Shown: positions 8,392-38,547, counted from the stretch's first letter. The stretch: DNA of 64,000 nt from Rhodothermales bacterium (GCA_965220935.1 OZ244857.1:2440929-2504928), one strand, 5' to 3'. Translations and numbers: made by a program. The notes: generated from the sequence alone by a model not told the origin.

Positions 8392-8392
8392 C

Positions 8393-11236: not shown

Positions 11237-11237
11237 T

Positions 11238-15491: not shown

Positions 15492-15794
15492 CCGAATTGT
15501 CATATTTATTGACAGTGTAAAGACTCCCAAACACCAATAAATGATTTACACTTTCAATTGAAGACTTTGACACCATAAGTGAGGAGATGATTCTGCTTAA
15601 TCACTAATTGAAGAGTTAAAGAATCCATCCATTCACACCCTGATTTTGCTATTCTTGTGAGGCTAGTTTCATTATCACAACCCTACCTATTGGCCAAAAA
15701 AATATTCGCACAATGTGCTCCTTAAGATTCATGAACACCTAACTGCCCATTACATTTATGATTACGACGTACTCATTTATCCGTAAATCAGTTC

Positions 15795-18539
15795 ATGCAC
15801 CATTTCGAAATGCCCATGAATCTAGGTAAGAAAAACACCGTTGTGGTTCTTGACCGCCACAGCTACATCACTCAACGTCTTAATTTTGCCCGTGAACATG
15901 CTCATGGAACCCAGATCATGATGATGAGTGACCTGGCCATCAGACTTGCGGGTGGATTCATTAAAACCGTTGACATTTCGTTTCTTCGGGCCACCATTCA
16001 TGAAACGATTCTTGATACAGATCTTGGAAGCTTAAATGTTATCAAAGATCTTCCAGGATTTGTGGCAGCAGCTACAAATACGCTTAACAAGGCCTGGCTC
16101 AGCGGCTATGATCTGAACCAATCACACCCTCGTGTGAAAGAGATTGCTCGTCTAAATGCTGCTGTGACCAAACGATTGCCACCTTCAATGCTACCACCTG
16201 CATCTCTCATTGCTGAAGCCTATAAGAACATTGCCCATGCACCTACAATTTTAGGTAGCATCAGATTCATGGGAATGACAGAACTCCACCCGTGCTGGTG
16301 GCCCCTGATTGAGCAATTGTGCGATCATGTACCTGTCACTTGGGTTGCAGGACCTCGACATATTCCTATGCACCTACCTAAGGGATGTGAACTGAAAACC
16401 GAATCTAAACAATGTCCACAAATCAAAACAATAAGCTGCTCAACCCCCTATCATGAAGCTATTGAAGCGATGCGATGGGCACGCCAACTAGTGACCCAAC
16501 AGGGAGTTCTTCCTCAAGATATCGCCATTGCTACAACGGATACAAAAATATACGATGACTTCTTTTTGGCATTACGGGAGGAATCTGACCTCCCCCTCTA
16601 TTTTGCGCATGGAATCAATGTCACCCAACCCGCCCATGGCCAATCAATTCTGGCACTAGCAGATCTTCTACTTCGTGGACTCTCCTCTGACCGGATTCAT
16701 CGACTGAGCTCTCATAAACAATTCTTAACCGATAAGATCAAAAACCTGAGAGATGCATGGTGGACGTTCACTATTAAAAATCATGACATCAATCTTCTCT
16801 CCCCAGATGAGTTAAAGATCAGGGCTCAAAAGTTAATTGCCGAAGAGAGGAAATCTGATTACTTACCGCTGGCAAACCTCCTCACAGAGATCAACAAGAA
16901 TACCAAATTCAGATTGGATCAAAACCCCGTCATGAGCTTGGAAGATCATATTGCAATGAAGCAGTCATGGCTTAAAACTGGAGAAAAACTCCTTTCAGGC
17001 GCAGCGCTTAAACTATGGAAAAATCTCCTCAAAGTTGCACCTGCTGCTTCACTTGAACAAGAAGCCCCTAGAATGTCAGTCCCTGAGCCTCCAGAATTCT
17101 GTGAACGCGTCGCATGGATGCCCGCTCAATCCCTTGCCGCTTCCCCACGCAAACACGCCCGACTTCTTGGGCTTAATTCATACCATTGGCCCCGAGAAAA
17201 CATCAAGGATTTACTATTGACCGGGCCTGGATTAGAAAATGCAAGTGAATCCTTAGATCCGCTGCCAGTAGCGGATGCCGATCAACGCGATTTTTCTACA
17301 ATCTGTAACACAACCTCTGAATCGGTCATTTGCTCTTTTTCTAGATACGATGCCGATGGAAAAGTGCTCGGACGTAGCCACCTGCTTACACCTGACATCT
17401 ACCATCCCACTTTAAAGTTATTTCGCAACTCTAGTCCTCCACATGCAATGAGCGAATCTGACTATCTGCTCGCTTCGCCCGATAAATTCAAACAGAATGA
17501 TCATGCGATCAGAGCGCTCCAATGTTGGACAAATTGGAACACATGTCACATTACCGAACACGACGGGTTGATCAAAGAAAATCACCCCCTGATTCGCCAT
17601 GTCCTCAAAAAACCCGCATCGGCCACTTCACTGACGCGCATGTTACGAGCCCCACTCGGATATATTTGGTATTATGGCTTGCATTGGCGAGGAGTGACTA
17701 CTCAGTCGGACCGCCTAACTTTAAGCCCTCTTAACTTCGGAATCTTGGTTCACCGTGCATTACAATCCATCCTTCAAACTCTTGAGTTCATCCGAAAAAA
17801 TTCTGAAGCAACCCCTATAAGTGATTCCATTATATCCTCGCTTGAATCTACATTTGAGATATGGGAATCTCTATATGGAACGCCACCAAAATTGCTGTGG
17901 GAAGAGACAAAAAAACAGATACAATCTATCACAACAACGGTGTTCAATGACTATCCATCAACAGAGAGTACATTATCGTTTTCTGAGGTTCCATTTGGGG
18001 GTAATAAATCAGAGATGAACCAAGATTCTCCGTGGGATTCAGACCGCCCCGTCACTCTTCCAGGAACAGACTTAAAAATTACTGGCTTCATAGACCGTAT
18101 TGACATTGATTACAATGACCTTCAAGCGCGTCTTACTGATTACAAAACAGGAAAACCAACGAAGAAGTCTGGGTTAAGAGGTGGACTTGAACTCCAAAGA
18201 TGCATTTACTATGTCGCTGCAAATTCACTATTACAGTCAGAGTTGGACATTTCTACCAGCCTCCTATATCTCCAGAATGGAGATCAGCTTACACTGCCCG
18301 AACCCCAACAAGAATTCATCAATGATCTATCAAAAAATGTAAATGAAGCCATTAAGAATTTCAACCAAGGTCATGTTTTCTTTGGGGCAAGCCCCAAACA
18401 AAAACATGATTTGGGTATCTATCGTGATCTGAAACTTGCTCTACCAGCCGATCTCCTTAGAGATTATGTTTCCAGAAAAGAGAAAGCACAAAACCAGAGA
18501 TTGGGACCTACGCTCCAAGAATTTTGGGAATCAGACTAA
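15795..18539 (+). CDS. AddB/RexB-like PD-(D/E)XK nuclease subunit (no Walker A, no Fe-S cysteine cluster)
   Basis: 914-aa ORF. The C-terminal RecB-family nuclease motifs are ITGFIDRIDIDYNDLQARLTDYKTGK and LELQRCIYYVAA (QxxxY). There is no GxxxxGK[ST] at the N-terminus, and only one Cys lies in the last 150 aa. It overlaps the next gene through a TAATG junction. Confidence 0.7.
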   Translation: MHHFEMPMNLGKKNTVVVLDRHSYITQRLNFAREHAHGTQIMMMSDLAIRLAGGFIKTVDISFLRATIHETILDTDLGSLNVIKDLPGFVAAATNTLNKAWLSGYDLNQSHPRVKEIARLNAAVTKRLPPSMLPPASLIAEAYKNIAHAPTILGSIRFMGMTELHPCWWPLIEQLCDHVPVTWVAGPRHIPMHLPKGCELKTESKQCPQIKTISCSTPYHEAIEAMRWARQLVTQQGVLPQDIAIATTDTKIYDDFFLALREESDLPLYFAHGINVTQPAHGQSILALADLLLRGLSSDRIHRLSSHKQFLTDKIKNLRDAWWTFTIKNHDINLLSPDELKIRAQKLIAEERKSDYLPLANLLTEINKNTKFRLDQNPVMSLEDHIAMKQSWLKTGEKLLSGAALKLWKNLLKVAPAASLEQEAPRMSVPEPPEFCERVAWMPAQSLAASPRKHARLLGLNSYHWPRENIKDLLLTGPGLENASESLDPLPVADADQRDFSTICNTTSESVICSFSRYDADGKVLGRSHLLTPDIYHPTLKLFRNSSPPHAMSESDYLLASPDKFKQNDHAIRALQCWTNWNTCHITEHDGLIKENHPLIRHVLKKPASATSLTRMLRAPLGYIWYYGLHWRGVTTQSDRLTLSPLNFGILVHRALQSILQTLEFIRKNSEATPISDSIISSLESTFEIWESLYGTPPKLLWEETKKQIQSITTTVFNDYPSTESTLSFSEVPFGGNKSEMNQDSPWDSDRPVTLPGTDLKITGFIDRIDIDYNDLQARLTDYKTGKPTKKSGLRGGLELQRCIYYVAANSLLQSELDISTSLLYLQNGDQLTLPEPQQEFINDLSKNVNEAIKNFNQGHVFFGASPKQKHDLGIYRDLKLALPADLLRDYVSRKEKAQNQRLGPTLQEFWESD

Positions 18540-21500
18540 TGCCCAAACAAAACACTTCCCTGGCTGATTCGCAGTCCAGAAATCGAGCCCTAACAGCGAT
18601 TGATGAATCCCTAGTTGTTGAGGCTGGCGCTGGAACCGGAAAGACAACGATTCTGGCAGGACGGATTGCGGTGATGCTAACTCTGGGAAAACCTCCTCAA
18701 CACATTGTTGCTGTAACATTCACAGAAGCCGCTGCCAGTGAGCTCCTTCTGCGGGTTCGAGAGTATGTACACCTTCTTCAAACAGGACAATTTCCGCCCG
18801 GGCTAAAAGCTGCCCTTGACGGAGAGCTGACTCCTAAGCAAAAGAAGAACCTTGAAAAAGCGGAAGACAACCTTGATGCATTAACATGCTCTACAATCCA
18901 CGGCTTCTGTCAGCGCGTGCTCAAAACGTTTCCTGTGGAAGCGAATATTGATCCTGGAGCAACCGTGATGGATGAAATGCAATCTAAAGGTGTCTTTCAT
19001 GAAGTCATGCACGGGTGGCTTAGACAAATTCTGTCTGATGATGATGGATACTTAGTTGCACAAATCTTGACGCGTAACAATCTTGATCATCTTCAAAAAA
19101 TCACGAACTGTGTGCGCATACATCGACAGGCTATCGCTAAACCGATGCATCAACTTGATGAGCGTCTCATAGAGTTCAGAGATTCACTCCAACAGTATGT
19201 GGATAACATCAGCAATATGGAGGAAAGCGTCCCCTCCGCGAAGGCAATTGCTAAAATTTTCATCCAATGGATTGAGATGTCTAAGATTACCCCAGAATCC
19301 AGCGTCAGCGAAATCATTGCATGCATTGATTTCGCCGCAAAAAATGAGCTCGTTACTCAAGAGAATTCCCGAACCACAGTGACGACCTACTATAATAGGT
19401 CAACTGCATCTGACTGGAATAAGGCATTGTCAGGAACAAAAAAATCCATCAACGAGGCCCGGAAGCGTGCAACCGATCTCTACAATCATGTCCGCGACCT
19501 ATGGAACAAGAGTATTCGTCATGAACTCTCTTCTGTGCTTCTTGGCCAACTCCTCGTTGACCTTAAGGGCTTATTAAAGCGCTACCAACAGTATAAACGA
19601 TCCGCAGGCCTCCTAGATTTTGATGACCTCATTATTGGAGTTTTAGAGCTACTTAGGCATCCTGATCATGGGCATGATGTTCGGCAAGCCCTCGCGAAGC
19701 AGTATCGTTATATCTTGGTTGACGAGTTTCAGGATACCGATGCTCAGCAAGCGGAAATTTTCTGGAGTCTTAGTAGCAGTGATCATCATGATGACTGGAC
19801 TAAACTTAAACCTCGTGCGGGCTCGCTATTTATCGTTGGTGATCCAAATCAATCAATATACAGGTTTCGAGGAGCGAACGTTGACATTTATTCAAAAGCA
19901 CGAAAAACATTCCCATCCAACAATGTGCTGAGCATTGTCACAAACTTCCGATCAACTGCCCCAGTCCTTGAGTTTATCAATGACAGATTCACACAACCGC
20001 TATCTGATGGTTACACCCATTTAATCCCCTTTAACCAGGAAACAAATGATTCACCATCAGTGGCGTCTATAGGATTTAATCCAAATGATGCAACAAATTC
20101 CAAGTTCCATGAAACCGAAGCGGTCGCTGTTGCCCAAGTATGCCATGAATTAATAACGTCACACTATCAAGCCAGCGATATTGCGTTGTTGACTCCGACT
20201 GGAACTGAGATACACTATTACGAACAGGCGCTACAAAATTTGGGAATTCAATTTGAAGCGCAGGCAGGCAAAAACTTCTTTCTTCTTCAAGAAATTCAAG
20301 ACTTAGTTGCATTAACGCTCATACTAGCGGATGGGAATAACAGTTTAGCCTTGGGGGCCTTCCTTAGAGGCCCACTGGTTGGAATCACCGACCAAGAACT
20401 CCTTGATTTAGCCTGGAAATTGCCACGAAATCCAGACCGACCTGATGAAACGGCTTCTCTGAATGCATGGATTGATGTGAATGTGATCAAACATGAAATT
20501 ATTTCAGATGTGATTATTAAACTCCAATCACTATTAAAGATTGCACATCGGTGCACCCCCTATCTGTTGTTAGCTTCTGCAGTAGACTGCTTCCACATCC
20601 GGGCACATCTAAGGCTTCGCTATGGCGATCAAGCGCCCCGAGCACTCTCAAATGTGGATCTCTTCCTTGAAAAAGCAAGGGCATACAATATCAGAGGTCT
20701 CAGGGATTTTGCCTCATCAATCTATCAAAAGTGGGGAGATGAAACCCCTACTCCCGAAGCGAAACCAGATATTTCACAGGACGCTGTTACGATCAGTACG
20801 ATACACAATGCAAAGGGGCTTGAGTGGCCAGTAGTGATCCCTATTAATACATGGAAGAGCCCAAGACCTGCAGATAACATCATCGTTGACCGATTGACCA
20901 GTGAGATATATGCATCCATATTCTCAATTCAGACCAGTGGCTTTGATGAAATCAAAGCACACGAGAATGAGCAGCTGCGAGATGAAAGGATCCGCCTGTG
21001 GTATGTCGCGGCAACCCGTGCTCGGAATCTGCTTCTGCTGACAGCACCAACAAACTTAGATCCTACTGCCACAGACAAGAGTTGGAGAGCAATCGTTGAT
21101 CTACGCACAGATGATCTACCATATTTCACTTCCAAGCGAATTCCAAAAAAAGATAATGAGGTGCTCCCTGAAAAGGTGAAGGTGCAAACATACGAGGATT
21201 TTATTGCCGAAGGTGATCAAATCAAACAGGTATCAAACCGCCTGAGATGGATCAGTCCAAGTAAAGATGAAGTTCCGCCTATTGATCTGGAGACCACAAT
21301 TATTGATGACGAGGATCACAGTATTGAAACGGCTGATATTCAAGGCAAAGGGTTCATTAGGGGATTAGTGATTCACCGATTAATTGAAGAAATAATCACT
21401 GGCGAGACCCATCGCGAAGATCTGTCATGCAGAGCACAGCAACTCAGTGACCAGATCCACACATCATTTGAAATTCATCCCCCTGTTGTAATGGATACTG

Positions 21501-21820
21501 AAGAGATAAGTTTTCGCATCCAGAGAACGTTGGATCTACCACCGATTAGCCATCTCTTGGGTTCCTTAGTCCCTGAATGTCCAGTATATAATGTTGTCTC
21601 AGATACAGAAAAAGAATCTGTTATCACTGGCATTGCTGATGCAATCAGCTTTTCATCAGATGGTTCTCCACAATTGATTATTGACTGGAAAAGTGGGAGG
21701 GCGACATCCCACCATCAGCAGCAAATCGGAGCTTACATGAATGCAGCCGGCATTTCCAAAGGCCTCTTAGTTTACATTGACAGCGGTCAAATCAAAGAAG
21801 TCAATGTATCCATACGATAA
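18539..21820 (+). CDS. AddA/UvrD-family helicase with C-terminal PD-(D/E)XK nuclease domain
   Basis: I place the start at ATG 18539, overlapping the upstream TAA (18537-18539); the track starts at TTG 18524. UvrD motifs seen are VEAGAGTGKTT, VAVTFTEAAASEL, TIHGFC, LVDEFQDTD, GDPNQSIYRFRGA, TIHNAKGLEWPVV and LWYVAATRAR. The C-terminal nuclease signature is GIADAISF...QLIIDWKSG...QQIGAY. Confidence 0.8.
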   Translation: MPKQNTSLADSQSRNRALTAIDESLVVEAGAGTGKTTILAGRIAVMLTLGKPPQHIVAVTFTEAAASELLLRVREYVHLLQTGQFPPGLKAALDGELTPKQKKNLEKAEDNLDALTCSTIHGFCQRVLKTFPVEANIDPGATVMDEMQSKGVFHEVMHGWLRQILSDDDGYLVAQILTRNNLDHLQKITNCVRIHRQAIAKPMHQLDERLIEFRDSLQQYVDNISNMEESVPSAKAIAKIFIQWIEMSKITPESSVSEIIACIDFAAKNELVTQENSRTTVTTYYNRSTASDWNKALSGTKKSINEARKRATDLYNHVRDLWNKSIRHELSSVLLGQLLVDLKGLLKRYQQYKRSAGLLDFDDLIIGVLELLRHPDHGHDVRQALAKQYRYILVDEFQDTDAQQAEIFWSLSSSDHHDDWTKLKPRAGSLFIVGDPNQSIYRFRGANVDIYSKARKTFPSNNVLSIVTNFRSTAPVLEFINDRFTQPLSDGYTHLIPFNQETNDSPSVASIGFNPNDATNSKFHETEAVAVAQVCHELITSHYQASDIALLTPTGTEIHYYEQALQNLGIQFEAQAGKNFFLLQEIQDLVALTLILADGNNSLALGAFLRGPLVGITDQELLDLAWKLPRNPDRPDETASLNAWIDVNVIKHEIISDVIIKLQSLLKIAHRCTPYLLLASAVDCFHIRAHLRLRYGDQAPRALSNVDLFLEKARAYNIRGLRDFASSIYQKWGDETPTPEAKPDISQDAVTISTIHNAKGLEWPVVIPINTWKSPRPADNIIVDRLTSEIYASIFSIQTSGFDEIKAHENEQLRDERIRLWYVAATRARNLLLLTAPTNLDPTATDKSWRAIVDLRTDDLPYFTSKRIPKKDNEVLPEKVKVQTYEDFIAEGDQIKQVSNRLRWISPSKDEVPPIDLETTIIDDEDHSIETADIQGKGFIRGLVIHRLIEEIITGETHREDLSCRAQQLSDQIHTSFEIHPPVVMDTEEISFRIQRTLDLPPISHLLGSLVPECPVYNVVSDTEKESVITGIADAISFSSDGSPQLIIDWKSGRATSHHQQQIGAYMNAAGISKGLLVYIDSGQIKEVNVSIR

Positions 21821-22198: not shown

Positions 22199-22445
22199 TT
22201 ACCGCTCACGGCTCCACTTTGATGAATCTTTTCCTTGTTTAGGCGACTCATCCTCTATCTTCGACATGTCAATCTGCTTTCTGCCATACGCATCAATCAG
22301 CCACGTATGCATGGAGGGAATGGGAATACCATAGTCCCCGTCGTCTCGCTCATCAATGATTCCTTGCTCAAGTGCTTTGTCAAACAGATTGTCTGCTTCT
22401 TCTTTGGAATACGCTTGCTTGAGTGAAGATTTGATGTCATCAATC
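22199..22445 (-). pseudogene. C-terminal fragment of ATPase paralogue A, separated from the rest of the gene by the IS256-family insertion
   Basis: My reverse translation gives ...IDDIKSSLKQAYSKEEADNLFDKALEQGIIDERDDGDYGIPIPSMHTWLIDAYGRKQIDMSKIEDESPKQGKDSSKWSRER, ending at the stop at 22201-22199. It is collinear with the C-terminus of the intact paralogue at 28580..29920. It joins 25042..25987 in frame once the IS and one copy of the 8-bp duplication are removed. Confidence 0.85.
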
Positions 22446-22532
22446 GGGGTTGTCCGAAAATTAGTTGATGTTCAATATTCTGGGAACCATCTACTGGTAT
22501 CCTTATCCATTCCATATTATCAACATTAACTC

Positions 22533-23558
22533 ATGCTATTACCTGAAGATTTTGGACAGTTACAGCAGACCTTGGAAGAAGCTGGGGTCTCTGGGCAACA
22601 GTTACGCGTGTCTCTGTTACGCCACTGTAGTGACTTGATCCAGCACCTCACGCACGATCTTGGCATGCCCAGTGCTCTTGACACTACGTCTGATTCTGCT
22701 CAAGAACCCATTCATGCAGATCCAGAAGAAGAGACATCGACAGCGCCTTTGTCGTCGCCCAGTTTCCCCGAATATGGGGATGAGTCCGATCTCCATCAGA
22801 TTCGCATGGAGGCGCTGGAAGTCTTTGATCACCGCCGTCTTGACGAAGAGACCTATGCCGTGTTGTGGATGGATGTGCTACGCGTCTGGGGTGCACCCTT
22901 CTTGCTGTGTATGGGCTCTACTTTGGAAGGCGATCGGCGTATGTTAGGATTTGAGCAGGCCTCCGCACAGAATATCGCCCGTGTGACGCATTTGTTTGCG
23001 TCGCTTCTCCATCGTGGACTGTCGCTTGACGATGGACTGCTTTGTATCACCCCCGTCACCGTCACGCTGGATCAGGTGTTAATGGACCTGGGTGGTGAGC
23101 GCATTCGCCTGCAGCATTGCCATCTGCACAAGCGTGAACGGATCGTAAGTGTTCTCACCGAGGAGCAACAAACCCAGATGCGGGGGCAGATCAACCGTGC
23201 CTTCTCCATTCCTGATGCCAAACAGGCACGGGAGGCGCTCTTGCGGATTCATGACCGCCTCCTGCGATGGAATCGTTCGGCTGCCCAGCGTCTGTTCAAG
23301 GATCTGGATCTATGTCTGACCTTGCATCAAACCGGACGGTATGAGCACTTGAGTCGCAGTCTGCGCACAACCTCTTGCGTTACCCATACCGTGCAGTATG
23401 TGAATCAGCGACTGCGAGGCATCCGTCACTGGCTGTCTCCCCAGTCGCGTCGTGCACAACTCGCACTGTTGCTGCTGGAACGCGAATCAAAGATGCATCG
23501 ACTCGCTCATGCTTCGTATCTTTCTTCCATGCAAACGTCTCTGTTTCCTTCCACATGA
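22533..23558 (+). CDS. IS-internal ORF: degenerate IS256/Mutator-type transposase paralogue lacking catalytic acidic residues
   Basis: 341 aa. It aligns by eye with the downstream transposase: RMLGFEQASAQN vs RVLGFVEATTEN, LQHCHLHKRERIVSVL vs VQRCTWHKRENVLGKV, and SLRTTSCVTHTVQYVNQRL vs SFQTTNIIESINSEL. The second-Asp block (LLVCIDGAKGL) is LLCITPVTVTL here, and the catalytic Glu position is Thr/His. Confidence 0.55.
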   Translation: MLLPEDFGQLQQTLEEAGVSGQQLRVSLLRHCSDLIQHLTHDLGMPSALDTTSDSAQEPIHADPEEETSTAPLSSPSFPEYGDESDLHQIRMEALEVFDHRRLDEETYAVLWMDVLRVWGAPFLLCMGSTLEGDRRMLGFEQASAQNIARVTHLFASLLHRGLSLDDGLLCITPVTVTLDQVLMDLGGERIRLQHCHLHKRERIVSVLTEEQQTQMRGQINRAFSIPDAKQAREALLRIHDRLLRWNRSAAQRLFKDLDLCLTLHQTGRYEHLSRSLRTTSCVTHTVQYVNQRLRGIRHWLSPQSRRAQLALLLLERESKMHRLAHASYLSSMQTSLFPST

Positions 23559-23652
23559 ATGGATCTCTCCAGACGTTGCCAGCAAGAACGACAAAAACCC
23601 ATAGGTTCTGTCGTTTCTGTTTCTCTTTTTACTCTTTAATCTACCCAATTTA

Positions 23653-25026
23653 ATGAAAACAACCTATCGACAAGGTCTCCCCGAACGAGACAATGGCTTT
23701 ATGGAGCTCTTTGAAGAAGAGCTTCAAGATGATGTCAGCGCAGGGAAGTTAGTGGATGATTATGTCACAATGGCGCAGGAGATCCTTGCCCTGCTGTTAA
23801 TTGACAATGAAGTGGAGCATTTATGTGGAGCGTACGCGAAGCATGACGATGTCCATGAGGGGCGCTATCAACGGTGGGGATCCAATCCAGGCTCCATCAA
23901 GATTCAAGGGGAGCGACTGCCGATCCGAGTCCCCCGTGTCCGCGATAGGGTGACCAAGAAAGAGGTTCCTCTCCAACGCTATCAGAAGTTGCGTAAACTG
24001 CCACCGAAGCAACAAGAGCATTTGACCAATCAGGTCTTCTATGGACTCACGCAGCGTAATTATCGCAAAGTGGTCCGTGCCTTCATCAATGGCATTGCTC
24101 CCTTCAAATCCTCGGTCAGTGAGGCATTCATTGAGCAAAGTACGCGAGAGTTGGAAGCGTTTGAACGGCGCCAGATCGGATCCGAAACGTATGTGGTCCT
24201 CATGATTGACGGCAAATATATGCGTGAACGCCAAATCTTGCACTGTGTGGGTATTACCGAAGAGGGACAGAAGCGCGTTCTGGGATTCGTAGAGGCGACG
24301 ACGGAGAATGCTGAGGCCGTTGAGGGGTTATTGTTGAATCTGATTGAACGCGGCTTGCGTTATGAGAAGGGACTGCTGGTCTGCATTGATGGAGCCAAAG
24401 GACTTCGTAAAGCGGTCGAGGATGTCTTTGGGGAGTATGCTCAGGTGCAACGTTGCACCTGGCACAAACGGGAGAATGTGCTCGGGAAAGTGAGGCAAGC
24501 GTCAAAACAACGTATCAAATCGAAACTCAATGATGCGTATAAGACCACAGAGTATGACGAAGCCAAGCAGAAGTTGGACACCCTCTGTGATACGCTGGAC
24601 AAAGAAGGAGAAGGCATGGCCGCCAAGAGCTTGCGGGAAGGCTTAGAAGAAACCCTGACACTCCAAAAACTCGGAGTGGTGGACGAATTGGGAAGGAGTT
24701 TCCAGACGACCAATATCATTGAGAGCATCAATAGCGAGCTTGAAGCGAACCTCAAGCGGATCAAACGCTGGGTGAACTCAAGTCAGTATCACCGATGGAT
24801 TGCCATGTCCATCATCAAGAGCGAGCAGAACTTCAACCCCATTGCTGGATCCAGTCATCTGCCAACGCTGCAGAAAGCACTTCTGGAGCGGGTGCCATCC
24901 ATGGAGAAAGCACCCAACCCGAGGCAAAATGAACACAAGATACCCCCTATGGATTCAACAGAATCTGTACATAAAGAGGAAATGAAGTCTATCTCTAATC
25001 GGATAAGAATTCCGAACATCAACTAA
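23653..25026 (+). CDS. IS256-family (Mutator-type) DDE transposase
   Basis: 457 aa. Family blocks are VVLMIDGKYM (D1), LLVCIDGAKGLRKAV (D2), QRCTWHKRENVL and TTNIIESINSEL (E). It sits between the 28-bp TIRs. Confidence 0.9.
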   Translation: MKTTYRQGLPERDNGFMELFEEELQDDVSAGKLVDDYVTMAQEILALLLIDNEVEHLCGAYAKHDDVHEGRYQRWGSNPGSIKIQGERLPIRVPRVRDRVTKKEVPLQRYQKLRKLPPKQQEHLTNQVFYGLTQRNYRKVVRAFINGIAPFKSSVSEAFIEQSTRELEAFERRQIGSETYVVLMIDGKYMRERQILHCVGITEEGQKRVLGFVEATTENAEAVEGLLLNLIERGLRYEKGLLVCIDGAKGLRKAVEDVFGEYAQVQRCTWHKRENVLGKVRQASKQRIKSKLNDAYKTTEYDEAKQKLDTLCDTLDKEGEGMAAKSLREGLEETLTLQKLGVVDELGRSFQTTNIIESINSELEANLKRIKRWVNSSQYHRWIAMSIIKSEQNFNPIAGSSHLPTLQKALLERVPSMEKAPNPRQNEHKIPPMDSTESVHKEEMKSISNRIRIPNIN

Positions 25027-25041
25027 TTTTCGGACAACCCC

Positions 25042-25987
25042 CATCAATCATCATGGTGTCCCCTAATGGAACATCATTGAATGTTTTTGCGAGAACCTGT
25101 CGTTTCCTCTTATCAATACCGTGGGCGCGCTGTCTATAATACTGAAGTCGAAACTCCGCCCCCTTTTCAAGGACAATCCGCAGGCCCGCATCCGTCATTT
25201 GATGATTGTTAGATTTAAGATAATTAGCAGCAGGCTTAACATAGGAAATGATATGCTGTGGCCATCCATGCGTTTGCTCAGAGATGGACTCAATCCATGG
25301 AGTTGGATCATCTATCGCTCCACCTGCTTCCGTGAGCCAATCTCGGATCACTTTATATTCTGAATCTTTATCCAATCGCCCCAGATTTATTAAAGATTCT
25401 CCTTCAAATCGTGATATGCCCAGTGAGTTAAAAGCAGACTCGGTCGTGCCAAGTCCAGCGGACAGAAGAATGACTGGACGGTCTAACCGCCCATTATGAA
25501 TCGCTTTGAGTACGTTGGCGGCAACCGTGTGCTGTTGACCAACTGGCTTGTTTGAACCTCCAAGCATCTGCGCCTCGTCCAAGATGAGAAGTAAAGGTTT
25601 CCTCCCCGACTTGAGGACTTTTTTGATGGTTGCGGCAGAATCCTTCACACTTAGTTCAATGCTCCCAACCTCTGGTAGCCCTGCGTTCACCTTTCCACTA
25701 AGCTTTTTTAGTATATTCCGATCTGGAATGGATTCGCGGAGGGTCTTAACATCCCAAAGAGCGGGCGCATCAATTTCAGCAGTTTTCCATTTTCGGTCCT
25801 CAGCAACCAGCCTCAGTTGATCAAGTAATGCCGTCTTTCCCGCGCCCGGTGCTCCTTGTATCAGGAAAGTGGATCCCCTTTTTTTGGAGAGATAGCGTTT
25901 AAGGGCGCTGGTAAACATGTCAATAACTTCTTGCCTCCCGTGAAAATATTCAGCAGGTCCTCGATCCTCAATGAAATCAGAACTCAT
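25042..25987 (-). pseudogene. N-terminal ~315 codons of ATPase paralogue A (disrupted by IS insertion)
   Basis: The track ORF 25019..25987 reads normal paralogue sequence up to ...PLGDTMMID, then runs into the IS right end (GGCPKIS, then stop). Walker A FLIQGAPGAGKTALL and Walker B LLLILDEAQ are intact. Confidence 0.9.
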
Positions 25988-26056
25988 GGTATTTCAGGAT
26001 TGATTAAATGCACGCAAACGCTGGAAATTTGATCTCGGTTGATCATGTCGTAGCAT

Positions 26057-27262
26057 TTACTGCTCACGACTCCACTTGGATGAATCTTTTTCTTGTTTTG
26101 GCAGCTCGCGCCTCACCTTGGATAACTCATCCTCTATCTTCGGCATGTCAACTTGCTTTCTGCCATACGCCTCAATCAGCCATGTTTGCATGGAGGGAAT
26201 CGGCACACCGTAGTATCCGTCTTCGTTCTTATCAATGATTCCTTGCTCAAGCGCTTGCTTGAAGAGATTGTCTGCTACTTCAGGAGGATACTCCTCTTCA
26301 AGAATAGATATAATTGACGTGCGCGTCGTAGTTCCACCAATTGGGAGATGGGCGAGAGATCTGGCGAGAGATTGACGTTGCTCCCCGTCAATATCATGTG
26401 CACGCTGCCTGTAATACCGAAGTCGTGACTCCGCCCCCTTTTCAAGGACAATCCGCAGGCCCGCATCCGTCATTTGATGATTGTTAGATTTAAGATAATT
26501 AGCAGCAGGCTTAACATAGGAAATGATATGCTGTGGCCATCCATGCGTTTGCTCAGAGATGGACTCAATCCATGGAGTTGGATCATCTATCGCTCCACCT
26601 GCTTCCGTGAGCCAATCTCGGATCACTTTATATTCTGAATCTTTATCCAATCGCCCCAGATTTATTAAAGATTCTCCTTCAAATCGTGATATGCCCAGTG
26701 AGTTAAAAGCAGACTCGGTCGTGCCAAGTCCAGCGGCCAGAAGAATGACTGGACGATCTAACCGCCCATTATGAACCGCCTTGAGTACGTTGGCGGCAAC
26801 CGTGTGCTGTTGACCAACTGGCTTGTTTGAACCTCCAAGCATCTGCGCCTCGTCCAAGATGAGAAGTAAAGGTTTCCTCCCAGACTTGAGGACTTTTTTG
26901 ATGGTTTCGGCAGAATCCTTTACACTTATTTCAATGCTCCCAACCTCTGGTAGCCCTGCGTTCACCTTTCCACTAAGCTTTTTTAGTATATTCCGATCTG
27001 GAATGGATTCGCGGAGGGTCTTAACATCCCAAAGAGCGGGCGCATCAATTTCAGCAGTTTTCCATTTTCGGTCCTCAGCAACCAGCCTCAGTTGATCAAG
27101 TAATGCCGTCTTTCCCGCGCCTGGTGCTCCTTGTATCAGGAAAGTGGATCCCCTTTTTTTGGAGAGATAGCGTTTAAGGGCGCTGGTAAACATGTCAATA
27201 ACTTCTTGCCTCCCGTGAAAATATTCAGCAGGTCCTCGATCCTCAATGAAATCAGAACTCAT
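26057..27262 (-). CDS. P-loop NTPase paralogue B (ORC/Cdc6-like or AAA_16/AAA_22-like ATPase with a probable winged-helix C-terminus)
   Basis: 401 aa. It carries FHGRQEVIDMF...FLIQGAPGAGKTALL (Walker A), LLLILDEAQ (Walker B) and THGWPQHI. It differs from copy A at only 4 residues over the first ~280 aa. Confidence 0.75.
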   Translation of the reverse strand: MSSDFIEDRGPAEYFHGRQEVIDMFTSALKRYLSKKRGSTFLIQGAPGAGKTALLDQLRLVAEDRKWKTAEIDAPALWDVKTLRESIPDRNILKKLSGKVNAGLPEVGSIEISVKDSAETIKKVLKSGRKPLLLILDEAQMLGGSNKPVGQQHTVAANVLKAVHNGRLDRPVILLAAGLGTTESAFNSLGISRFEGESLINLGRLDKDSEYKVIRDWLTEAGGAIDDPTPWIESISEQTHGWPQHIISYVKPAANYLKSNNHQMTDAGLRIVLEKGAESRLRYYRQRAHDIDGEQRQSLARSLAHLPIGGTTTRTSIISILEEEYPPEVADNLFKQALEQGIIDKNEDGYYGVPIPSMQTWLIEAYGRKQVDMPKIEDELSKVRRELPKQEKDSSKWSREQ

Positions 27263-27340
27263 AATATTTTTGGGTTGATTTAATGATTAGATACACGCAA
27301 AACGCTGGAAATTTCATCTCGGTTGATCATGTCGTAGCAT

Positions 27341-28555
27341 TTACTGCTCACGACTCCACTTGGATGAATCTTTTTCTTGTTTTGGCAGCTCGCGCCTCAC
27401 CTTGTACGACTCATACTCTATTTTCGGCATGTCAATCTGCTTTCGGCCATACGCCTCAATCAGCCATGTTTGCATGGAGGGAATCGGCACACCGTAGTAT
27501 CCGTCTTCGTTCTTATCAATGATTCCTTGCTCAAGCGCTTGCTTGAAGAGATTGTCTGCTACTTCAGGAGGATACTCCTCTTCAAGAATAGATATAATTG
27601 ACGTGCGCGTCGTAGTTCCACCAATTGGGAGATGGGCGAGAGATCTGGCGAGAGATTGACGTTGCTCCCCGTCAATATCATGTGCACGCTGTCTGTAATA
27701 CCGAAGCCGAGACTCCGCACCCTTTTCAAGGACAATCCGCAAGCCCGCATCCGTCATTTGATGGTTGTTGGACTTAAGATAACCAACAGCAGGCTTAACA
27801 TAGGAAATGATATGCTGTGGCCATCCATGCGTTTCCTTGGCAATGACATCAATCCATGGATCGGGATTCCCCTCGGCAGCACCTACTTCCGTGAGCCAAT
27901 CCCGGATCACTTCATGTTCTGAATCTTTATCCAATCGCCCCAGATTTATTAAAGATTCTCCTTCAAATCGTGATATATTAAATGATTTAAAAGCAGACAC
28001 GGTCGTTCCAAGTCCAGCGGTAAGAAGCATGACAGGCCTTCCCAAGTCACCATTGTGTATTTTGCCAAGTACACTAGTAACTACACCCCTCACCCCATCA
28101 GGAACCACTCTATCTGACCCCAGAGACTGGGCTTCATCCAAGATGAGCAGGAGCGGATTCTTGTCATCTTGGAGGATTTTCATTATCGTGAGTGCAACAG
28201 GACTGGCTTCAACAGAAAATCCAGCGCTAGCTTTGATAATTTTCTCAACGCCAACTTCCGCAGATGCCCCAGTAATACGCATTCCAGATTTCTTTCCAAG
28301 ACAGTGCGAGAGATCCTCTGGGCTCCATAAAGCGTTTGGGTAAATATCCGCGATTTGCCATTTCTTCTTTACTATCTTTTTGCACTCATGAAGAAGTGCG
28401 GTCTTGCCCGCGCCTGGTGCCCCTTGTATAAGGAATGTGGTTCCTCTTTTTTTGGAGAGATAGCGTTTAAGTGCGCTGGTAAAAGTGTCAATAATTTCTT
28501 GTCTCCCGTGAAAATATTCAGCTGGACCTCGATCCTCAATGAAATCAGAACTCAT
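27341..28555 (-). CDS. P-loop NTPase paralogue C
   Basis: 404 aa. The N-terminal ~50 aa and C-terminal ~140 aa are nearly identical to copy B. The segment between Walker A and Walker B (LHECKKIVKKKWQIADIY...ILQDDKNP) is divergent. Confidence 0.75.
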   Translation of the reverse strand: MSSDFIEDRGPAEYFHGRQEIIDTFTSALKRYLSKKRGTTFLIQGAPGAGKTALLHECKKIVKKKWQIADIYPNALWSPEDLSHCLGKKSGMRITGASAEVGVEKIIKASAGFSVEASPVALTIMKILQDDKNPLLLILDEAQSLGSDRVVPDGVRGVVTSVLGKIHNGDLGRPVMLLTAGLGTTVSAFKSFNISRFEGESLINLGRLDKDSEHEVIRDWLTEVGAAEGNPDPWIDVIAKETHGWPQHIISYVKPAVGYLKSNNHQMTDAGLRIVLEKGAESRLRYYRQRAHDIDGEQRQSLARSLAHLPIGGTTTRTSIISILEEEYPPEVADNLFKQALEQGIIDKNEDGYYGVPIPSMQTWLIEAYGRKQIDMPKIEYESYKVRRELPKQEKDSSKWSREQ

Positions 28556-28579
28556 AATATTTTTGGGTTGATTTAATGG

Positions 28580-29920
28580 TTAGATACACGCAAAACGCTG
28601 GAAATTCATCTCTGTTGATTGAAAAGTAGCGTTACCCCTCACGACTCCACTTTGATGGTCTTTTTCTGGTTTAGGCGACTCATCCTCTATCTTCGGCATG
28701 TCAATCTGCTTTCGGCCATACGCCTCAATCAGCCATGTTTGCATGGACGGAATCGGCACACCGTAGTATCCGTCTTCGTTCTTATCAATGATTCCTTGCT
28801 CAAGCGCTTGCTTGAAGAGATTGTCTGCTGCTTCTTTGGAATACGCTTGCTTGAGTGAAGATTTGATGTCATCAATCATCATGGTGTCCCCTAATGGAAT
28901 ATCATTGAATGTTTTTGCGAGAACCTGTCGTTTCCTCTTATCAATGCCGTGAGCGCGCTGTCTATAACACATCGCCCGACGCTCCGCCCCCTTTTCAAGT
29001 ACTATCCGCAAGCCCGCATCCGTCATTTGATGATTGTTAGATTTAACATAACTAGTAGCAGGCTTAATATAGGAAATGATATGCTGTGGCCATCCATGCG
29101 TTTGCTCAGAGATGGTCTCAATCCATGGAGTTGGATCATCTATCGCTCCACCTGCTTCCGTGAGCCAATCTCGGATCACTTCATATTCTGAATCTTTATC
29201 CAATCGCCCCAGATTTATTAAAGATTCTCCTTCAAATCGTGATATGCCCAGTGAGTTAAAAGCAGACTTGGTCGTTCCGAGCCCAGCGGCGAGAAGAATG
29301 ACTGGACGATCTAACCGCCCATTATGAATCGCCTTGAGTACGTTGGCGGCAACCGTGTGCTGTTGACCAACTGGCTTGTTTGAACCTCCAAGCATCTGCG
29401 CCTCGTCCAAGATGAGAAGTAAAGGTTTTCTCCCCGACTTGAGCACTTTTTTGATGGTTTCGGCAGAATCCTTCACACTTATTTCAATGCTCCCAACCTC
29501 TGGTAGCCCTGCGTTCACCTTTCCACTAAGCTTTTTTAGTATATTCCGATCTGGAATGGATTCGCGGAGGGTCTTAACATCCCAAAGAGCGGGCGCATCA
29601 ATTTCAGCAGTTTTCCATTTTCGGTCCTCAGCAACCAGCCTCAGTTGATCAAGTAATGCCGTCTTTCCCGCGCCTGGTGCTCCTTGTATCAGGAAAGTGG
29701 CTCCCGCTTTAAGTGTGGTGGATTCAGAGAGGACTGTCTCAAATCTGGATATAATGTCTTCCCTTCCGTGAAAAAATGCCGCAGGTCCACGATCACGCCC
29801 AGTTGCGGGAGTCGGCGACTTCCCGTCATCGGGAGTTTGTGTAGACGGCTTTGAATGTGGATAGCGGAACATGGTTAGATGATGTGGACGAATTTGTCTA
29901 CTCATCTCTGTACGCCCCAC
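28580..29920 (-). CDS. P-loop NTPase paralogue D (unique N-terminal extension)
   Basis: 446 aa in the track (GTG start); ATG alternatives at 29905 or 29872 are possible. The first ~70 aa are unique and Pro/Thr-rich. The core is near-identical to A/B, and the C-terminal type is shared with the disrupted copy A. Confidence 0.7.
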   Translation of the reverse strand: MGRTEMSRQIRPHHLTMFRYPHSKPSTQTPDDGKSPTPATGRDRGPAAFFHGREDIISRFETVLSESTTLKAGATFLIQGAPGAGKTALLDQLRLVAEDRKWKTAEIDAPALWDVKTLRESIPDRNILKKLSGKVNAGLPEVGSIEISVKDSAETIKKVLKSGRKPLLLILDEAQMLGGSNKPVGQQHTVAANVLKAIHNGRLDRPVILLAAGLGTTKSAFNSLGISRFEGESLINLGRLDKDSEYEVIRDWLTEAGGAIDDPTPWIETISEQTHGWPQHIISYIKPATSYVKSNNHQMTDAGLRIVLEKGAERRAMCYRQRAHGIDKRKRQVLAKTFNDIPLGDTMMIDDIKSSLKQAYSKEAADNLFKQALEQGIIDKNEDGYYGVPIPSMQTWLIEAYGRKQIDMPKIEDESPKPEKDHQSGVVRGNATFQSTEMNFQRFACI

Positions 29921-31081: not shown

Positions 31082-31374
31082 ATGCCTGTTCAAAAGGCTT
31101 ATAACCCTTCGGGTTCAAACTGTTCCTATCGTGGAATAGAGTATCGCCTATTATCTGGCACGCAGTGGAAAGCCCATCTCTTGTCAGGGCTTTGCGGAGC
31201 ATGCAGGTTTGTATGGAATACGTTTCTTGACCAAATCAACAGGGACTATAAAGACGAACATAAGGATAATCCAGAATTGACCTGGCCGTCATTAAGTAGG
31301 AGATACACTTCTTTTCGCCAACCATTTCTTGGTTGAATCGGTACTCGTCCAATATTGTACGAAACACCTTAAAG
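31082..31374 (+). pseudogene. tnpB: tnpB (RuvC-like RNA-guided nuclease family) 5' portion, with a frameshift near 31320
   Basis: The track ORF 31082..31336 (MPVQKAYN...GIEYRLLSGTQWKAHLLSGLCGACRFVWNTFL...) is a typical TnpB N-terminus. After a -1 shift, the frame reading ISWLNRYSSNIVRNTLK runs to 31374, where the insertion begins. Confidence 0.75.
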
Positions 31375-31838: not shown

Positions 31839-34800
31839 GTGCAGTTGAGCGCATGTTATAGATCAGATGTCGCGTGTGAGATAGGGACTGGAAGTGATGA
31901 TGTTGTTCATTCAAGCGCGCATTTGTTTTCTGGCATAACTTCTGATCGGGTGCGCCCTGACAAGGAGGTGAATTCTTTGCCCTTGAAGGCACGTAAACGC
32001 CCGCCCGGAAAACCCACGGGCGTAACCGTTGCACCCTATGAAACCGGGCGCAATGCACGCGAGACCCTTTCCATTTCCTGGACGGCCAACCCCAATGGGA
32101 ATAAAGCCATCACAGGGCATGAGATTGAGTGGTCGTCGGATGGAACCTCAGACTGGAAGGATCTTCGCACGGTTGCAGGCGGACTAACGGAAACGCTTTT
32201 CACTGGCCTCTCGCCAGGCACCACACGCCATATCCGGATCCGAAGTAGGGATGACGACGGCGATGGCCCCTGGTCCGATGTCGTCTCTGGGACGACCAAT
32301 CCGGTGGGCAGACCAGGTCCACCTGCGACGAGTTCAGCCACGGTTAGTTCATCCACTATTAATCTTTCGTGGACCGCACCATTGGATGATGGAGGCTCGC
32401 CGATTACGGCATACGCGATTTCGGGTTATGTAGATGATGGTAAGTTTGCGCCTGAGACTAGCTTTTCAGCCACCACCAAACCTGATGTCAGAAGTTACAC
32501 TGTCACTGGGCTTATGGCATCCACAAAATATATCATTAGTATAAATGCAAGAAATTCTGTTGGTATCAGTCAAACTGCTCAAGTTATCCAAGCCACCACT
32601 AATGCAGTGGGCAGACCAGGTCCACCTGCGACGAGTTCAGCCACGGTTAGTTCATCCACTATTAATCTTTCGTGGACCGCACCATTGGATGATGGAGGCT
32701 CGCCGATTACGGCATACGCGATTTCGGGTTATGTAGATGATGGTAAGTTTGCGCCTGAGACTAGCTTTGCAGCCACCACCAAACCTGATGTCAGAAGTTA
32801 CACTGTCACTGGGCTTATGGCATCCACAAAATATATCATTAGTATAAATGCAAGAAATTCTGTTGGTATCAGTCAAACTGCTCAAGTTATCCAAGCCACC
32901 ACCGCGGCCATCACCGCCCCGGCCGCTCCGACGGGATTAACGGCCACGGCCGATGGTCCGACGAAGATCAAGTTAACATGGACGGCCCCTTCGGACAACG
33001 GCGGCGCGGCCATCACGGGCTACAAGATTGAGTCAAGGCTGCGATCCGAAACCAGCTTCAGCACTCTCGTCACTGACACCAAAACCACCAAAACGGACAC
33101 GACGCATACGGGGCTCGCGCCATCGACCCAGCGGTTTTACCGGGTCCGCGCGATCAATTCCGAAGGAGCAGGGGCGGCATCCAGTTCCGCCACGGCCATC
33201 ACGGCCGCGGCCACGCGCCCCAGTGCCCCCAGGAACTTGACCGCCACGGCTTCGGGCCGCACCACGATCATCCTAAACTGGACGGCCCCTGCAGATGACG
33301 GCGGCTCAGCCATTACCTATTATCGCGTTGGCGTGTCAACGAATCAAGGAACTAGTTGGACCGGTTTGGCCGACGTCCGGGGAGCCACCACCTATTCGCA
33401 TACGGGGCTTTCGGCGGGGACGCGGCGCGATTACCGGGTGGTTGCGGCCAATAGTTCGGGGCGGGGCTTTAGTGATCGCTCGAATGTGGCCAATGCCACG
33501 ACCGCCGCAGCCACAGCCCCGGGTGCTCCCAGCAGTGTCACGGCCACGGCCGACGGGCAAACGGTGATCAATTTGACATGGACGCTCCCGGCCGATGATG
33601 GGGGCAAGGCCATTTTGGGCTACCGGGTGCAGTGGTCGTCCAACGGAAATCCGCCCTGGACGAATGTTACGCCTGCACACACCGGAACAGGTCGCACCTA
33701 CCGCCATACGGGGCTCAGCGCAGGCACGACGCGACATTACCGGGTCTTTGCCCGCAACTCGGTGGGTGAGGGCACCAGTTCTGGTACCGTCAATGCGACC
33801 ACGGCGGCCGCACCGACCCTCACCACGCCCGCGGCCCCCACGGGGTTAAGGGCCGAGGCCGAAGGCCCGGAAACGATCAGCCTATCCTGGAACGCGCCCA
33901 CCAATACCGGGGGCGCAGCCATTACGGGCTACCAGATTGAAGTCTCGCCCAATGGCACCTCTAACTGGGATGATTTGGTGGCCAATACTGGGTCCACCAC
34001 GACCGGCTATGTCCATGGGGGCTTGGATGCCGGCACCAGGCGGTACTACCGGGTCAGCGCGATCAATTCGCAGGGAGCGGGGGCCGTCTCCAATGTGGCC
34101 AATACCACGACCCTCCCTGCCACGGTCCCTGCGGCCCCTACGGAGTTGACCGCTGCGGCCGACGGGCAAACGATCATCAACCTGTCTTGGAAAGCCCCGA
34201 CCAATAGAGGCGGGGTACCGCTTACCGGCTACCAGATTGAAGTCTCGCCCAATGGCACGGACACGTGGACCAATATTACGCCTGCACACACGGGAACGGG
34301 GCGCACCTACAGCCATACGGGGCTCACGGCCGGCACGACGCGGTATTACCGGGTCTATGCCAGAAATTCAAAGGGGACCAGTGCAGCAGCGTCCAATGTG
34401 GCCAGTGCCACGACCACCGCCGCCGCCACAGCCCCGGGTGCCCCGCCCAATTTACAGGTTTTTCCTACAGGTTTTCATGATGTGAGACTTACCTGGGGAC
34501 GTCCGCCCAGTGATTCGCCGATCACAGGATACAAGGTGGAATGGTCTACCGATGGTGGCACCAACTGGGAGACGTTGATTGGATACGACGATCTGACTCG
34601 GACGAGGTACGAGTTTCTCAGTAGTCGCTTGACGCCGGGGAGCGTGTTTCATTTTCGGGTTCTGGCACGCAGTGCATTGGGAGATAGTGACCCTTCGGAT
34701 GCAGTGTCGGTCACAGCCGCCTCGGCCCCTAGGTCAGGCATTGCCACCAATGTAGGGGTGAGTCAGACGTCGGCCAACGCGGCGCAAATTTCCTGGGATG

Positions 34801-37622: not shown

Positions 37623-38547
37623 TTTAAAGCATCAGGCAGAGGCGTGGCAGGCTTTCTTCAAGGGATTACGTGATCATCCTACTTCCATAATCGGTTTCAA
37701 CACAATTCGTTTACGGCGACCAAAGGATTGTTTAAGATCCGAGGGAATGATGTCTATATCCAGAAGATTGGCTGGGTGAAGTTTCGTAGGAAAGGAGGTA
37801 ATCCTTATCCAGACGGTGAGCCGATTGAAGTCACCGTGAAGAAAGACGGACGGTACTGGAAGATGAGCGTAATTTACAAAGTCACTAATCTACCAGAGAA
37901 GGTGGACGATGGCAAAGAGATTGGCATTGACGTGAATACCTATAACATTTCTTATTCCTCAACGGATGGTGAACAGGGCATGTTACCGGTCCCTGAATTA
38001 ACGGATAAGGAGATTAAGATTCGTCGGTGGCAAAGAAAGTTAGCCCGACAGCAGAAAGGATCTGGTCGATCCAAGCGAAAGATCAACAAGTGGAAGCGAA
38101 AACAGAAGAACTGCAGAACGAATGCGGCACATCAACATAGCCGTAGATTGTCCAATAAGGCGAAGACTTGAAGATCAAGACTATGTCCAAGGACACGGTT
38201 GAGAACCCTGGAACCAATGTGAAGGCAAAAGCAGGGTTAAACAGAGCCATCCTTAACGCTGGATGGAGACGGTTTAATTCCTATTGCGATTACAAGTTTG
38301 GCAACGTGATTCTTGTAGATCCGAAGTATACCAGTCAACGCTGTAATCAGTGTGGTCATACAGATAAAGTCAATCGCAAAGTAAGTTTAAGTGTATGGCT
38401 TGTGGCCATGCGGATCACGCAGACATCAACGCGTCTGTGAATATATTACAGGCCTCCGGGATTGGGGCATCTGCACGTGGAGGAGCGTTCTCGTTAGAGA
38501 CTCCTATGAGCCGTGAAATGGATACGCAAAAGGTAGCCGTCAAATAG
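37623..38547 (+). pseudogene. tnpB: tnpB 3' portion (two further frameshifts near 38155 and 38380)
   Basis: The reading is continuous from LKHQAEAWQAFFKGLRDHPNFHNRFQHNSFTATKGLFKIRGNDVYIQKIGWVKF... to the stop at 38171. The next frame gives GEDLKIKTMSK...GLNRAILNAGW...YTSQRCNQCGHTDK, which holds the RuvC Glu and a zinc-finger CxxC. A third frame gives SKFKCMACGHADHADINASVNIL (second CxxC and the RuvC Asp) to the stop at 38545-38547. With the 5' part, the reconstructed protein is ~400 aa. Confidence 0.8.

Follow-up and report, generated by a model that had tools for sequence, protein, structure and literature searches.

Mosaic ATPase paralogues in a four-gene tandem array of a Rhodothermales bacterium: reassorted modules on a minimal STAND/ORC-like scaffold

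How do four adjacent genes come to be nearly identical to one another in some segments and strongly divergent in others, and what might such a family do for its host? The question is raised by positions 22199-29920 of a 64,000-nucleotide stretch from a Rhodothermales bacterium (GCA_965220935.1 OZ244857.1:2440929-2504928, hereafter the window), where four co-directional ATPase paralogues lie on the minus strand in the order D, C, B, A. A first-pass annotation of this DNA had described them as a mosaic array in which recombination shuffles hypervariable cassettes on a conserved ATPase scaffold, and had proposed that they behave as sensor or specificity modules of an immune-type family. The explanation that we prefer overall, and in which we place moderate confidence, is an array shuffled by recombination whose products would act as switch or recognition proteins; the evidence for the array, for its shuffling and for its function is weighed in turn below.

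The most mundane alternative is that the array is an assembly artefact of collapsed or chimeric repeats, since ~1.3-kb repeats at 80-100% identity are difficult to assemble. However, a separate 478-kb assembly contig matches the window at 100% identity over 21 kb, and a circular 4.15-Mb sister genome obtained from another sample at 1281x shows the same D-C-B-A order with gene A intact, adjoining the same UvrD-like and PD-(D/E)XK genes as the window array. The two loci are colinear, with 98.6% identity across the array and 99.1% across its flanks, and each array gene is 98.3-99.3% identical to its sister-genome counterpart. With order and mosaic identical in separate assemblies of two samples, one of them a circular contig, an artefact is excluded for practical purposes, and the four paralogues form a genuine tandem array that has been vertically conserved. 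Moreover, because the order and the mosaic are shared with the sister genome, both must be older than the split between the two strains. Arrays of this family in the species repeatedly consist of exactly four genes, as is seen twice in the window's genome and twice in that of the sister strain; the four-gene arrays are that of the window and those at L080 (5412-10466), L077 (7056-12478) and L078, and they often mix short and long N-terminal types.

Within the array, gene D occupies 28580-29872 and encodes 430 amino acids from the ATG at 29872 given by the public gene call; its open reading frame (ORF) reaches a GTG at 29920, which had been taken as the edge of the array, and 29872 is the most likely start. 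Gene C (27341-28555) encodes 404 amino acids and gene B (26057-27262) 401, and gene A is found in two pieces, a 5′ part at 25050-25987 (codons 1-312) and a 3′ part at 22199-22445. The spacers measure 24 nt between D and C (28556-28579), 78 nt between C and B (27263-27340) and 69 nt between B and A (25988-26056), in keeping with the short spacers first described. The B-A and C-B spacers are homologous, and the final 24 nt ahead of each start codon also match the D-C spacer, which indicates that the units of the array are whole gene-plus-spacer tandem repeats. The C-terminal tail of gene D (…EMNFQRFACI; 28580-28640, minus strand) is a translated homologue of the C-B spacer with a one-base difference, from which it follows that the original stop codon of gene D is gone and that its reading frame runs on to a point 24 nt short of the start of gene C. 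Scanned for promoters and terminators, the array yielded counts no higher than the shuffled expectation and no intergenic terminator, using a sigma-70 model that is ill-suited to this phylum.

Gene A, which had been described as one of four ~400-residue genes, is split by a 2,596-bp insertion sequence (IS) of the IS256/Mutator family at 22446-25041 (plus strand) that the first-pass annotation had missed. As interrupted, gene A is a 322-codon ORF that runs into the IS and stops at 25019 (25019-25987, minus strand). Inverted repeats of 39 nt, located by a repeat search, span 22443-22481 and 25006-25044 and include an exact 28-nt match (22446-22473 and 25014-25041), and the element is bounded by an 8-bp target duplication, CATCAATC, at 22438-22445 and 25042-25049. 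When the IS is excised together with one copy of the duplication, 25050-25987 joins to 22199-22445 and restores an uninterrupted gene A ORF of 394 amino acids, which is 98.8% identical at the nucleotide level to its intact sister-strain orthologue (P0004, 394 amino acids), with 98% identity in the C-terminal cassette described below (cassette 2) and 100% at the 3′ end. Since gene A is intact in the sister strain within the same array order, the insertion is recent. The element itself is unusual in carrying two transposase paralogues within one pair of exact 28-nt ends: a full gene of 457 amino acids at 23653-25026 and a truncated one of 341 amino acids at 22533-23558, 29% identical to the first, which lacks the N-terminal third and, by eye, also the Asp at the position where the 457-residue protein has IDGAKG.

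The patchwork itself is stark. The motifs FHGR, GAPGAGKTALL, LLLILDEAQ, THGWPQHI and DGYYGVPIPSMQTWLIEAYG quoted in the first-pass annotation are all present in the array, and most of its description of how the copies relate holds up as well. Genes A and B differ at 4 residues over ~276 amino acids and then switch type. In sliding windows of nucleotide identity the core is 98-100% identical among A, B and D, while gene C is only 33-60% identical to them across a private block (cassette 1, 28052-28393) that runs from just past Walker A to about residue 165, the block between the two Walker motifs noted earlier. In the C-terminal cassette 2 the grouping changes: A matches D and B matches C at 98-100%, with ~50% identity between the two types, and the cassettes 2 of genes C (27557-27718) and B (26273-26434) are identical at every nucleotide. 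It changes again in the next ~100 nt, where gene A, at 80%, stands apart from B, C and D, which are 100% identical. Gene D accordingly combines a long N-terminal type, an A/B-type core, an A-type cassette 2 (28826-28987) and a B/C-type distal 3′ patch; its kinship with the A/B core and with A in cassette 2 had thus been recognised correctly, and the distal patch departs from the A-type C-terminus ascribed to it. Similarly, its 5′ end is unlike those of the other three genes, and the longer N-terminus is real within the array; it is not unique, as had been claimed, since the same long type recurs across the family. In gene B, which serves here as reference, Walker A lies at 27107-27130, Walker B at 26843-26866, the GWPQH motif at 26528-26542 and cassette 1 at 26768-27100.

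Two measurements take this mosaic beyond simple duplication. First, the 77 quartet-informative sites fall in 8 runs, whereas 20,000 shuffles gave 19.9 on average and never fewer than 9 (p<5e-5). Second, synonymous divergence (dS) between genes B and C falls from 3.0 in cassette 1 through 0.33 in the middle to 0.08 in cassette 2, so that it spans ~40-fold by segment within one gene pair, a range that differences in selection could not produce. As the first-pass annotation had proposed, the patchwork is the product of homologous recombination among tandem and dispersed copies, through both unequal crossing-over and short gene-conversion tracts. The 5′ 1.1 kb of gene B matches A, and its 3′ end together with the downstream spacer matches C, and gene B thus looks like the product of a single unequal crossover, with A 5′ and C 3′ portions and matching spacers. 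The B/C-type patch in gene D, by contrast, has A-type sequence on both sides and needs a conversion tract. Comparison of the two strains further shows that conversion is ongoing: at two sites genes A and B (and D as well at one of them) share a strain-specific base that differs between the strains, short patches of gene D in either strain match copies from another array, and the border of cassette 2 in gene C is shifted by ~40 nt between strains. The breakpoints lie in conserved stretches, around Walker A, in the sensor/lid region and in the distal winged helix.

Could the shuffling instead be driven by a dedicated site-specific recombinase, in the manner of a shufflon or an hsdS switch? There is some encouragement for this in another genome, OZ244061.1, in which the arrays L003, L004 and L005 are each headed by a tyrosine recombinase gene ~244 nt upstream (compare L070, below) and every inter-gene spacer holds a remnant of that gene's last 57 codons. 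It follows from these remnants that the ancestral repeat unit there started within the recombinase gene, of which most copies are truncated. In the window we found no recombinase homologue, adjacent or otherwise, and no inverted repeats between the copies, which are all co-directional; the only inverted repeat of the region is formed by the ends of the IS. The breakpoints also differ by tens of nucleotides between strains, as homologous tracts would and fixed sites would not. We therefore regard a site-specific system as very improbable, and general homologous recombination as the economical explanation for the window.

The first-pass annotation had also called the cassettes hypervariable, and in this respect our reading differs. 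The ratio of nonsynonymous to synonymous divergence (dN/dS) lies between 0.1 and 0.9 in all segments, which argues that the copies are functional and maintained by purifying selection, and the cassettes are old, divergent alleles, saturated at synonymous sites, that are reassorted and not hypermutated.

Recombination of this kind extends well beyond the window. A word-indexed search returned 1,029 relatives, with many distinct clusters coming from the same few ~4-Mb genomes, and an exhaustive profile search of 1.84 billion representatives gave 311 clusters at E <= 1e-30. The 150 relatives listed are all of 500 amino acids or fewer (mostly 360-470), and the match covers most of each protein, so that the family is a small one with one architecture throughout. 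Among species-representative genomes 421 stretches encode a relative, and our surveys of copies, neighbours and partners cover the best 75 of these, all of which come from uncultured Rhodothermales or Rhodothermaceae metagenome-assembled genomes (MAGs). One of these MAGs, bin80, is a Rhodothermaceae bin from the sponge Aplysina aerophoba (PMC5649159), and the host clade is largely sponge-associated. The 75 loci hold 132 copies, and about one third of the loci contain co-directional tandem arrays of up to at least 8 copies, in answer to the earlier suggestion that homologues be sought as arrays elsewhere. One 3.7-Mb genome alone carries ~34 copies, and dispersed copies are 45-55% identical. Scans of IMG/VR and PHROGs gave no relatives, and our literature search found no described expansion of this ATPase family.

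Across the family, column entropy peaks at residues 61-130, 141-160 and 291-330, which are the positions of the cassettes in the window. Three modules can be delimited: an N-terminus of short or long type, the insert between Walker A and Walker B (cassette 1, residues ~55-165), and the first half of the winged helix with its first two helices (cassette 2, residues ~277-330). In the eight-copy array L005, from a different species, comparison of six full-length copies reveals these three modules again, with two types of each, in at least 4 combinations, with 98-100% identity within a type and 40-67% between types. Comparison of 103 full-length copies gives 155 pairs with one or more modules in common at >=95% amino acid identity; in 129 of these another module is at <=70%, and only 3 of the 155 are >=95% identical throughout. 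Within the window's own genome, the second four-copy array (L080) and a singleton (L079) form mosaics with the window copies over a distance of more than 200 kb. Module reassortment is therefore a property of the whole family, and it is ongoing at the strain level. The family has also left a remnant elsewhere in the window: at 40120-40488 (minus strand) a frameshifted N-terminal fragment covering residues ~6-128, and 67-74% identical to A, B and D, is a pseudogene remnant of a fifth copy. It adjoins a match to the Rfam group II intron D1-D4 model (40634-40749, 42.6 bits), and a probable hemL gene follows immediately downstream of this minus-strand region (40120-40749).

What kind of protein is being shuffled? 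The AAA+ signatures are conserved (Walker A GxxGxGK[ST] and Walker B hhhhDE), with G45, G48, G50, K51, D137 and E138 invariant in 51 sequences and retained in all four window copies. Further invariant motifs are an N-terminal D-R-G...F-x-G-R (DRGPxxYFHGR) and a G-W-P-x-H at the start of the lid, in which G241, W242 and P243 open the lid helix 243-259; we take this GWP motif to be the GxP motif of STAND proteins. An AlphaFold2 model built from 51 homologues (mean predicted local distance difference test score 79) predicts a P-loop α/β domain at about residues 19-202, a helical lid at 207-287, a winged helix at 293-367 and a disordered tail after residue 370, so that the protein shows the STAND core order of nucleotide-binding domain, GxP-bearing helical domain and winged helix. 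Beyond these we found no effector and no repeat sensor (LRR, TPR or WD40), there being no further Pfam domains and only the disordered tail in the model. Searched against the PDB with Foldseek, the model retrieved PABY2304 (2qen) first at 8.6e-12, then Cdc6, Orc1 and ORC4, then NB-ARC NLRs and CED-4, whereas a sequence search of the PDB gave marginal Cdc6 matches only (~1e-3).

Of the Pfam models only AAA_16 (PF13191) is matched above its gathering cut-off of 32.6 bits, by genes B (41.1), C (34.6) and D (35.3). For the same genes ATPase_2/Arch_ATPase (PF01637) stays at 25.6, 20.7 and 22.3 bits against a cut-off of 33.2, and the NCBIfam Orc1/Cdc6 model TIGR02928, which matches the N-terminal part only, at 26.9, 21.1 and 19.3 against 181.3. 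Scores for NACHT (20.5 against 26.7), nSTAND1 (19.8 against 27.1), nSTAND3 (18.9 against 27.2) and nSTAND5 (19.7 against 34) are likewise below their Pfam cut-offs, and NCBIfam and PHROGs scans of the ATPases returned nothing specific. The family thus passes only for the broad AAA_16/AAA+ class and for the core features of STAND proteins, and the model, the Foldseek matches and the AAA_16 score bear out the earlier impression of an ORC/Cdc6-like or small STAND-like layout. We conclude that it is a predicted minimal nucleoside triphosphatase (NTPase) of nucleotide-binding domain, lid and winged helix, stand-alone at ~400 amino acids, uncharacterised, and on the borderline between ORC/Cdc6 and STAND.

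Such ATPases could also be transposition helpers of the TniB, IstB or TnsC kind, which would be multi-copy because they travel with mobile elements. These too are AAA+ ATPases with weak sequence matches to the family, including TniB and AAA_22, and transposases are the commonest neighbours of the copies in our survey (~25 of 139). The TniB score (PF05621), however, is 18.3 bits against a cut-off of 22.4, TnsC and IstB appear only at E ~0.6-0.9 in the PDB sequence search, and none of the 75 loci points to a consistent transposase partner: the neighbouring transposases come from many unrelated IS families, and both their orientation and their distance vary. Moreover, dispersed copies are far more divergent than those of an IS, the genes have no flanking terminal repeats, their proteins carry a winged-helix domain, and the one IS of the window array interrupts a copy and does not carry it. 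With TniB below threshold, no cognate transposase and no bounding terminal repeats, we rejected this identity, to which we would give next to no credence.

Among characterised structures the closest is PABY2304 (PF01637, COG1672; template modelling score ~0.5-0.56), which has the same layout of nucleotide-binding domain, helical lid and winged helix, and shares an N-terminal F-x-G-R motif and a T-x-G-x-P-type lid motif. The ATPase_2/Arch_ATPase family to which it belongs is also multi-paralogue and of unknown function. The window family differs in its sub-threshold PF01637 score, in being bacterial, with its closest genomic relatives in the Rhodothermales (among the best 75 loci), and in lacking the DUF234 extension, a C-terminal domain of many COG1672 proteins that has been classed as PD-(D/E)XK (PMC3424549). 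Like Orc1/Cdc6 (1fnn, 2qby, 2v1u, 1w5s), it couples an AAA+ module to a winged helix at the C-terminus and has extra sequence inserted between the two Walker motifs, and the structural alignments, at E 1e-8 to 1e-9, are full-length; its lid motif, however, is of the STAND GxP type and not of the ORC sensor-2 type, TIGR02928 falls far below threshold, and tens of copies per genome occur in tandem arrays. With STAND and NLR proteins (NB-ARC, NACHT, Avs, bNACHT) it shares the core of nucleotide-binding domain, GxP helical domain and winged helix, and NRC, Sr35, ZAR1 and CED-4 structures are matched at E ~1e-7, over the full length of the model. Plant NLR clusters evolve by tandem duplication, unequal crossing-over and gene conversion, which yield mosaic paralogues. 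Unlike these proteins, the window family has no LRR, TPR or WD repeats and no effector, its NACHT and nSTAND scores are sub-threshold, and its variable parts lie inside the NTPase and winged-helix core and not in a repeat domain. The hsdS specificity genes of type I restriction offer a likeness of another sort, in that two variable modules between conserved segments are reassorted among copies to give combinatorial variants; their fold, however, is unrelated, and the hsdS switches work with silent copies in inverted orientation, usually by means of a dedicated recombinase, whereas the window copies are complete and co-directional with no recombinase in the window. By analogy, then, the locus most resembles an NLR-type cluster or hsdS-type module shuffling, carried out on a minimal STAND/ORC-like NTPase.

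Judging by their fold, the ATPases would be nucleotide-driven switches or oligomerisers. Structures of Orc1/Cdc6 on DNA show two elements in contact with it, the winged helix and the initiator-specific insert, the second of which also shapes protomer contacts in AAA+ initiators. Cassette 1 would occupy the position of the initiator-specific insert and cassette 2 would lie in the winged helix, i.e. at the positions of the Orc1/Cdc6 DNA-contacting elements. The variable modules would then determine what the protein binds specifically, be it a ligand (DNA or a foreign protein) or its partners in oligomerisation, and each genome would carry a repertoire of module combinations, most of them unique. 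Biologically, the likeliest role is perhaps recognition in a conflict setting, such as defence or control of mobile DNA; we put this forward tentatively, with confidence well short of even. In favour of such a role are the expansion of the family, its almost complete lack of redundant copies, its habitat, and the many loci set among defence genes and IS elements; it is weakened by housekeeping contexts, by the want of an effector and by the absence of positive selection.

Several observations weigh directly against reading the family as immune sensors. Clustering of 1,187 ORFs from the 75 loci gave no conserved partner or effector gene, and PADLOC-DB 2.0 gave no significant model, its best matches (E 6e-4 to 9e-3) covering P-loop stretches only. 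With no killing or signalling domain in the ATPase itself, an immune output is hard to picture. Segment-wise dN/dS exceeds 1 in no segment and gives no sign of positive selection, and it is the fold alone that suggests DNA binding and oligomerisation. The recognition helix and wing of the winged helix are conserved and not variable, which is easier to reconcile with a shared target or an intramolecular contact than with diversified reading of DNA. Finally, in the window's own genome the second four-copy array (L080) sits among BioY, DinB, UbiA and holB, and the singleton L079 beside a TRAP transporter. The immune-type sensor or specificity function proposed by the first-pass annotation is consequently plausible but unproven: no PADLOC model, no partner, copies in housekeeping surroundings and dN/dS below 1.

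The same observations lend some weight to ordinary concerted evolution among non-immune paralogues, either DNA-binding ATPase regulators or maintenance and replication factors left by integrated elements, with the mosaic as a neutral by-product of recombination among similar genes that lie side by side. Copies in housekeeping neighbourhoods, purifying selection on every segment, and the lack of a matching defence model would all be expected of such genes, an ORC/Cdc6-like fold is typical of initiators and regulators, and a copy lies 240-390 nt downstream of a tyrosine recombinase gene in OZ244061.1 and OZ242302.1 (one locus, L070). Against this, the ~34 copies of a single 3.7-Mb genome are too many for a regulator or initiator, the family is absent from the phage collections IMG/VR and PHROGs, and the rarity of whole-gene near-identical pairs (3/155) argues that new combinations, and not mere copies, are retained. 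We consider this explanation unlikely, though it deserves to be kept in view, and we continue to favour a shuffled array of putative switch or recognition proteins.

The genomic surroundings are mixed. The only recurring neighbours in the survey are IS transposases of many families and the tyrosine recombinase that adjoins copies in two genomes; some loci have defence-type neighbours (ResIII, SNF2, type IIG, PLD, AAA_15) and others plain housekeeping ones. The window array abuts a DISARM-like cluster and an AddAB-like pair, and neither recurs beside family copies elsewhere. By appearance these form one large co-directional cluster at 3151-21820 (plus strand) in which a DISARM-like system is joined to the AddAB-like pair. 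It encodes a 1,746-residue DEAD helicase with an MZB/DUF1998 domain and a C-terminal DUF559, a DrmD-like SNF2 protein of 964 amino acids (matched by the PADLOC DpdE model at 2e-196), a DrmMI-like Eco57I-type methyltransferase of 1,417 amino acids, a 914-residue PD-(D/E)XK protein and a 1,098-residue UvrD/AddA-like helicase-nuclease, all with NCBIfam scores under the equivalog cut-offs. On the other side of the array, a plus-strand gene at 31839-37373 encodes 1,844 amino acids of fibronectin type III repeats; it has ~60% G+C in a genome of ~44% G+C, contains internal 308-bp repeats at 98% identity, and is flanked by apparent TnpB/IS605 remnants at 31082-31336 and 37728-38440. Its protein tail resembles, by eye, a sorting domain of the type IX secretion system, and a similar fibronectin type III protein elsewhere in the genome has a weak Por_Secre_tail match. 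In the sister strain the array is separated by other IS elements from sequence shared with the window.

Even if the family proves to be non-immune, the family offers a clean natural setting in which to study how bacterial tandem arrays undergo unequal crossing-over and gene conversion, with events that can be dated between two ~99% identical strains. A bolder and rather doubtful possibility is that this clade keeps a combinatorial recognition repertoire built from a minimal STAND-like ATPase, in which homologous recombination keeps moving three modules among tens of complete genes per genome, so that nearly every copy is unique. Array-mates may co-assemble into mixed oligomers, similar to ORC, and would sense diverse invaders or mobile DNA with no fused sensor or effector, which would make them a bacterial counterpart of NLR clusters with the variability placed inside the NTPase and winged-helix core. 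If the modules do set specificity, the family would represent a compact and tractable case of combinatorial diversification in a bacterial NLR/ORC-like NTPase, in which recognition repertoires are built by reassorting existing alleles and not by hypermutation or repeat-domain sensors, and this would explain why the family takes up ~1% of the genes in some largely sponge-associated Rhodothermales genomes.

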